Source of the DNA: a virus
Lineage: Duplodnaviria; Heunggongvirae; Uroviricota; Caudoviricetes
Strand: one strand, 5' to 3'
DNA length: 36,377 nt
Virus record (IMG/VR): IMGVR_UViG_2917398303_000003
The notes beneath the pieces are model-generated. The model was not told the DNA's origin, searched no databases, and worked only from the letters and a program-made list of their open reading frames with translations. The translations under genes were made by a program, and so were the position numbers. Positions 31,636-32,116 of this stretch are shown here, in pieces; the stretch's first letter is position 1; every line of letters begins with the position of its first letter.

Positions 31636-32116
31636 TGATGGTGCTGGGATTGTACGTGTTTATGCTGCGCACCGTGCCGTATCAGGAACTGCAGTATCAA
31701 CGCAGCTGGCGACATGCGGCTAACAGCCGGGTAAATCGTCGTCCGTCCACGCAGTTTCTGGGACCGGACAACGACATGCTGACGCTTTCCGGTGTTCTTA
31801 TGCCGGAGATAACAGGCGGCAGGCTGTCGTTGCTGGCACTTGAGCAGATGGCAGAACAGGGGAAAGCATGGCCTCTGATTGAAGGCAGCGGCACGATTTA
31901 CGGCATGTATGTCATTGAGGGACTGAATCAAACTAAAACGGAGTTTTCCGCGACGGTATGCCGCGCCGGATTGAGTTCACCCTGTCGCTCAAACGGGTGG
32001 ATGAATCCCTGTCCGATATGTTCGGTGATCTCAGTGCGCAACTGAATAATCTGCAGGACACGGCAACGTCTGCCTTAAGCGATATCAGTAAAACGGTGGG
32101 AGGGCTGCTGTCGTGA
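31632..32116 (+). pseudogene. U: Tail protein U (P2 gpU homolog) with an apparent 1-nt deficit at a T4 run (31944..31947) that splits the reading frame
   Basis: ORF track 31632..32045 covers the N-terminal part. The conserved C-terminus (...GMPRRIEFTLSLKRVDESLSDMF...TVGGLLS) is in another frame and ends at 32114..32116, overlapping the D start. Adding one T at gagttttcc would restore ~161 aa; P2 gpU is ~159 aa as I recall. Confidence 0.55.

Follow-up and report, generated by a model that had tools for sequence, protein, structure and literature searches.

The tail gene U of the P2-like prophage described here is recorded in two reading frames, one base short of a complete gene. This raises the question of whether the base is missing from the cell or only from the sequence, and whether a gene in this state could still be used.

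The prophage and its tail operon

The window (the whole 36,377-nt stretch of DNA that was analyzed) is a P2-like prophage of the Peduoviridae, with the Elveevirus phages Cartapus and 4LV2017 as its nearest named relatives. It extends from its integrase side as far as ogr, and beyond this come the host genes ybjL, ybjM and grxA. Positions 2226–14645 are 100% identical to PDIB01000030.1 from the draft genome of Escherichia sp. E4694, in which the prophage is inserted next to ybjL, and the D protein is an exact match to WP_135491088.1 of the same strain. The gene order T-U-D of the FETUD tail operon agrees with that of annotated relatives, and the structural genes other than U are all intact (Table 1). 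A GGGAGG motif at 32099–32104 lies 8 nt upstream of the GTG start codon of D, and translation of D probably goes on, uncoupled from that of U.

Table 1. Gene U, its neighbors and other sites of length variation, in window coordinates (T4 and T5 denote runs of four and five T's).
Feature	Position	Strand	Remarks
Perfect tandem duplication of the 26-nt unit CCCCTTGGACTCGTGGCAATAACTGT in replication gene A, frame-shifting	7098..7149	+	
Runs undercalled in Logan contig SRR6148338_735	8913; 8931; 13230; 14258		C7 to C6; T5 to T4; GG to G; A6 to A5, respectively
Gene T (tape measure), intact	28558..31635	+	stop overlaps U start (ATGA)
Gene U (P2 gpU, tail tube initiator), carrying the frameshift in this record	31632..32116	+	486 nt / 161 aa given one more T
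Recorded ORF, 137 aa: 105 native gpU residues (to ...TKTEF) and 32 out-of-frame residues (SATVCRAGLSS...VRN)	31632..32045	+	TGA at 32043–32045
Native C-terminal frame of U, after TAA 31934–31936	31937..32116	+	TGA at 32114–32116
T4 run, site of the one-base deficit	31944..31947	+	T5 in relatives (alignment)
52-codon ORF from an ATG inside the native C-terminal frame	31958..32116	+	
Gene D (baseplate hub), intact	32113..33213	+	GTG start overlaps native U stop (GTGA)

Gene U as recorded

An earlier note, made from the sequence alone, had placed the N-terminus of gpU in the ORF that ends at 32045 and its C-terminus in another frame, opening after a TAA and ending in a stop codon that overlaps the start of D. 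All of these coordinates hold, and the GTG at 32113 does lie within the GTGA overlap. The frame that follows the TAA codes for the gpU C-terminus, ...GMPRRIEFTLSLKRVDESLSDMFGDLSAQLNNLQDTATSALSDISKTVGGLLS, and the exact 52-aa peptide of its internal ORF is found in other records as fragments annotated "phage tail protein / GpU".

Comparison with U genes of related prophages, which the note had proposed, showed T5 in all close relatives examined, where the window has T4. An alignment of the gene with its counterparts in E. coli S163-2, phage Cartapus and Klebsiella phage 4LV2017 contained a single gap in 486 columns, at the T run; outside the run the mean column identity was 98%. Addition of one T, predicted to yield about 161 aa, gave a protein of exactly 161 aa that is identical to WP_000980391.1, the U protein of E. 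coli S163-2 and the commonest gpU allele, on record in at least 1000 contigs. Of 114 complete T5 copies of U retrieved from public collections, 113 are uninterrupted 161-codon ORFs. Taken with the alignment and the identity of the repaired protein, this marks the split as a departure from the norm and not a chance pattern of ORFs. Orthologs in which U ends near 32045, which would have made the recorded form the normal one, occur as rare variants: protein clusters hold 22 members of the 137-aa form versus 1,907 of the intact form, and the 22 represent the same frameshift allele. Apart from the shift, U shows no degenerative change, and there is no nonsynonymous change on either side of it. The T5 run is the longest homopolymer in the intact gene.

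Predicted effect on gpU

The repaired protein matches the Pfam family PF06995 (Phage_P2_GpU) with 150.5 bits over residues 6–125. The recorded 137-aa ORF also scores well above the gathering cut-off of 27.5, with 122.3 bits, and is thus a member of the family, but it covers only profile positions 1–102 of 120, while positions 103–120 and the region of the C-terminal helix are out of frame (−1 frame). A complete PF06995 domain with its C-terminal helix in a single ORF of about 160 aa is absent from the sequence as recorded and appears only after one T is added. Compared with P2 gpU (WP_000980391.1 / J7QZ58_ECOLX), the locus has 100% identity after repair, the same T-U-D order and the same overlapping stop and start codons, and differs in that the recorded ORF ends at 137 aa.

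The only significant relative of known structure, by sequence, was PA0626 of the R2 pyocin (PDB 6U5B; E = 8.5e-7). Residues 8–127 of gpU align to residues 159–287 of PA0626, including the ...GMPRRIEFTLSLKR... strand that is lost through the frameshift. This "ripcord" protein differs from gpU in its length (290 aa), in an extra N-terminal part and in belonging to a tailocin and not a phage, and the identity between the two is low. In the cryo-EM structure of P2, gpU is the tube initiator, with six copies per virion located between the trimeric gpD hub and the tube, and its C-terminal helix touches the wedge (preprint 10.64898/2026.09.14.750843). Taken literally, the recorded sequence would leave the native frame after residue 105 and terminate 68 nt before the start of D. 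This would cost the protein the end of its GpU core domain as well as its C-terminal helix, and no functional tube initiator would be made; judging from the domain and structure comparisons, loss of the last core strand together with this helix should abolish gpU function.

Recoding or a split gene

The FETUD operon of P2 contains a case of two frames used together, the tail genes E and E+E', which are expressed by a programmed −1 frameshift analogous to that of lambda G/GT. In the window, E (28129..28431) and E' (28446..28565) lie in the expected frames, and the canonical P2-type slippery site TTTTTTG is intact within E at 28386–28392. Gene U resembles this arrangement in belonging to the same operon and in having two overlapping frames joined at a T run; it differs in having only TTTT and no slippery heptamer, and in that its two-frame state is rare and not conserved.

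We considered the possibility that the T4 allele is functional, either because slippage of the ribosome or of the transcribing polymerase at the T run yields full-length gpU, or because the 137-aa and 52-aa products act as a split gene. The T4 arrangement does recur on several haplotypes, one lineage retaining it over seven contigs (see below), and with six gpU copies per virion (preprint 10.64898/2026.09.14.750843), low-level restoration of the frame could in principle suffice. However, the junction, G GAG TTT TCC, does not have the X XXY YYZ form of a slippery heptamer, and the tRNA would be unable to re-pair after a −1 slip, while four T's are probably too few for efficient transcriptional slippage. 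The RNA downstream of the junction folds with a minimum free energy of −33.5 kcal/mol, which is unremarkable among pseudoknot-free folds (z = −0.93; 37 of 200 shuffled sequences fold at least as well), and the 52-aa ORF has no evident ribosome-binding context. The shift also removes the end of the PF06995 core, and the predominance of single ORFs among the T5 copies and in the protein clusters argues against conservation of the two-frame state. A programmed frameshift or a functional split gene was rejected on the absence of a slippery heptamer, the ordinary fold and the lack of conservation, and we regard a functional T4 allele as the least probable of the readings considered here.

The T run in public sequences

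Among about 1,070 complete E. coli genomes that carry the gene, no T4 copy of U surfaced, the best matches always being one gap away. IMG/VR contained at least 120 T5 contigs versus a single T4 contig, which was rejected as independent evidence, being 100% identical over 11.6 kb to E4702, a second genome of the same sequencing project as E4694. A scan of genome contigs returned three matches to U, all T5, and a scan of metagenomes for T4 returned one low-coverage contig, identical to a public T4 contig (L021). The U haplotype of the window itself had no match in the JGI metagenomes, and its sole 100% match elsewhere came from the same read set. No independently sequenced relative with this haplotype was found to have inherited the T4 lesion, and the closest prophages at the same integration site (L025, L026 and that of strain E4385) have T5.

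Nevertheless, unrelated samples, among them human gut metagenomes, yielded T4 contigs that represent at least five distinct haplotypes, and the nearest neighbors of these have T5. The possibility that T4 is a single inherited allele spread by recombination was rejected: there was no common linked SNP, and several of the nearest neighbors have T5. One U haplotype, G44R/A146V, had T4 on seven contigs (from seven samples of different projects; Logan/ENA) versus one intact contig. It appears to mark a bacterial lineage of wide distribution that has inherited a frameshifted U in a prophage at the same site, next to ybjL. The T run in U is thus a real, recurrent slippage site. Some of the public T4 contigs (L020, L021 and L024) come from visibly error-prone data, with more homopolymer deletions nearby, so that part of the public T4 signal is artefact.

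Other length changes occur at the same spot. In STK56751.1, from an NCTC E. coli strain, the residues TKNGVFSATV imply A5 followed by T6, and in another protein TKRSFSATV implies A3 with T5. The A4 run beside the T run is therefore affected as well, with at least one case probably resulting from homopolymer errors in long reads.

Sequencing platform and assembly errors

The project used the Ion Torrent platform for all of its 16 genomes, with single-end reads of 35–400 nt, and E4694, at about 50x coverage, was assembled with MIRA and SPAdes (PMC6639607). A search for sequence of E4694 from another platform found none. With such an assembly, sequencing error weighs at least as much as decay as an explanation. 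When one Listeria strain was assembled from both Ion Torrent and Illumina reads, about 14.5 of 1,748 core loci differed, in most cases by a frameshift, the mean length of the affected homopolymers being 5.5 (PMC12046094), and high-frequency indel errors can be mistaken for polymorphisms and give frameshifts in assemblies (PMC3623719).

The same class of error was found in the data at hand. Relative to the deposited assembly, a Logan assembly of the same run (SRR6148338) has four one-base homopolymer deletions in 7.5 kb, one of them a T5 read as T4 (Table 1); in the Logan assembly alone, the terminase gene P and the scaffold gene O are split as a result. Undercalls in these reads are thus frequent enough to win a naive consensus. 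The sister assembly E4385 (PDIK01000007.1) has seven poly-A length errors, all extra A's, in 6.5 kb of host DNA, splitting ybjL (468 versus 561 aa) and rimK and shortening potF. These look like assembly errors and not biology; the U gene of E4385 has T5. In E4702 (PDIA01000049.1), the identical T4 is found on another U haplotype, with 45 differences per kb, in a prophage at another integration site, beside smpB.

The deposited assembly of E4694 itself is far cleaner. No other homopolymer-length discrepancy with relatives was found in the window or in a further 3.7 kb beyond it (on a Logan contig), a span of about 40 kb, of which the window comprises 188 runs of at least 5 nt, including 67 of 6–8 nt. 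These 67 runs should be more error-prone than a T5, and the clean assembly therefore counts against an artefact. Differences from E. coli in the length of intergenic A runs at 33726 and 35674 were rejected as undercalls, since seven close relatives have the same lengths as the window. In the host flank (33588–36377) and the further 3.7 kb, no indel relative to these seven relatives was attributable to E4694, even at A7 runs. Alignment of roughly 30 kb of the prophage to relatives revealed just two indels in coding sequence, the T deficit in U and a 26-nt insertion in A. At all four Logan undercall sites the deposited assembly has the longer, frame-preserving length, whereas at U both assemblies have T4. 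The Logan assembly was rejected as independent confirmation of T4, however, because it is built from the same reads and is itself the more error-prone of the two.

The U lesion is thus like known Ion Torrent artefacts in being a single-base deletion in a 5-nt run of an Ion Torrent-only genome, with the same class of error in sister and alternative assemblies. It is unlike them in that the rest of the deposited sequence, over about 40 kb, is free of such errors and in that both assemblies agree.

The lesion in gene A

The insertion in the replication gene A is a tandem duplication (Table 1); once one copy is removed, an ORF of 804 aa is regained, with 96% identity to gpA of a relative. The same duplication junction was found in five IMG/VR prophage contigs that are 83–96% identical to the window, four with two copies of the unit and one (L160) with three, all of which truncate A. 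Its presence in five other public contigs indicates that the variant in A is natural and genuine; the unit is a copy-number-variable, frame-breaking repeat inside the gene. The Logan contig of the E4694 run (SRR6148338_735) stops inside the duplication, at about position 7127. The unit presumably resembles the nick region of the P2 origin of replication, and the recurrent duplication may have arisen through errors in rolling-circle termination or through slippage, a lead that deserves to be followed. The P2 origin is placed inside gene A in the part of PMC3986222 that cites Liu and Haggard-Ljungquist (1994).

A substitution lesion independent of homopolymers was found in the T4-bearing prophage of E4702, in which GAG is changed to TAA at codon 106 of baseplate gene I (contig positions 1069–1071). 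The second lesion in A and the nonsense codon in E4702 form the pattern that is expected of decaying prophages. The E4694 element resembles defective (cryptic) P2-like prophages in that a second essential gene is broken in the same element and in that T4 alleles of U occur elsewhere. It differs from them in that the other structural genes are intact and U shows no further decay, which would place it at the very start of degradation, if the lesion in U is real.

Origin of the missing T

The earlier note had left the choice between prophage decay and a homopolymer sequencing error, pointing to the lesion in A. That lesion exists, and both alternatives have found support. Both are also ordinary and already known in kind. 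On balance we slightly favor the view that the Ion Torrent reads undercalled the homopolymer and that the error persisted in the deposited consensus, inferring that the U site is among the runs undercalled in this read set. U would then be intact in the cell, and no special mechanism, neither recoding nor split-gene biology, would be involved. By rough estimate, the probability of a residual undercall at one particular T5 in the deposited assembly is a few tenths of a percent, a figure that takes into account an error in about 3% of runs in the naive assembly and the absence of all four known cases from the deposited one. For a real T4 the equally rough estimate is, as a general rule, a few tenths of a percent at most, but higher in a prophage that is already defective; per site, the two probabilities thus agree in order of magnitude. 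What tilts the balance slightly towards an artefact is the platform, the recurrence of T4 in another genome from this project, and the fact that high-quality genomes lack it.

The main rival, to which we assign somewhat less than an even chance, is a real deletion, in which a prophage already defective in A lost one T from the T5 run through slipped-strand mispairing. U would be a pseudogene and tails would not be built, as a result of ordinary decay at the most slippage-prone site of the gene, its longest run. The agreement of both assemblies on T4 and the otherwise clean deposited sequence are consistent with this, as are the frameshift in A, which is not of the homopolymer type and recurs in public prophages, and the true nonsense codon in gene I of E4702. 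So is the fact that T4 recurs in unrelated samples, on five or more haplotypes without a common linked SNP, with G44R/A146V nearly always in the T4 state. Against a real deletion stand the Ion Torrent platform and a read set that demonstrably undercalls homopolymers, the T5 of the closest prophages at the same site, and the error-prone origin of some public T4 contigs. Two independent T4 events in one 16-genome project are also hard to square with a natural frequency well under 1%, and with no nonsynonymous change in U around the shift, any real lesion would have to be very recent. A more far-reaching version, in which the T5 run is a genuine inactivation hotspot of P2-like prophages and T4 is perhaps maintained, either through low-level slippage or because the host gains from silenced tails while immunity and cargo are kept, draws on the five or more independent origins and on the lineage with seven T4 contigs. 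We consider it improbable, if less so than a functional T4 allele.

The main relevance of these results lies in the quality of annotation. If an Ion Torrent undercall is responsible, U is intact and its "pseudogene" should not be counted as decay. If the T is truly missing, the prophage is unable to make tails and, with A broken too, is a young defective prophage. The draft genomes of PRJNA412557 carry homopolymer frameshifts, and pseudogene calls in them consequently need confirmation at the level of reads or from a second platform.

Other features of the prophage

The window carries cargo at 7861–8645 (− strand) and 9067–10638 (+ strand), flanked by the A/DinI region on one side and the portal gene on the other, a slot whose content varies among P2-like phages. 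The slot contains a GNAT acetyltransferase (139 aa) followed by a 120-aa ORF, and a 523-aa protein with weak matches to an ATPase family (PF01637) and to mads_8; these genes could form a toxin-antitoxin system or a module for defence. A gene at 24920–26053 on the − strand, flanked by the tail-fibre assembly gene and the sheath gene FI, encodes a 377-aa acyltransferase of the Acyl_transf_3 family and is likely a lysogenic-conversion gene of the O-antigen acetylation type. A similar acyltransferase occupies this slot in other T4-bearing prophages (Logan/ENA contig L013 and E4702). At position 3456, inside a DUF5347-family gene, Cartapus has T4 while the window and E. coli Ecol_542 have T5; the gene is annotated in Cartapus as a pseudogene (CARTA_39), a homopolymer frameshift in the reference phage.
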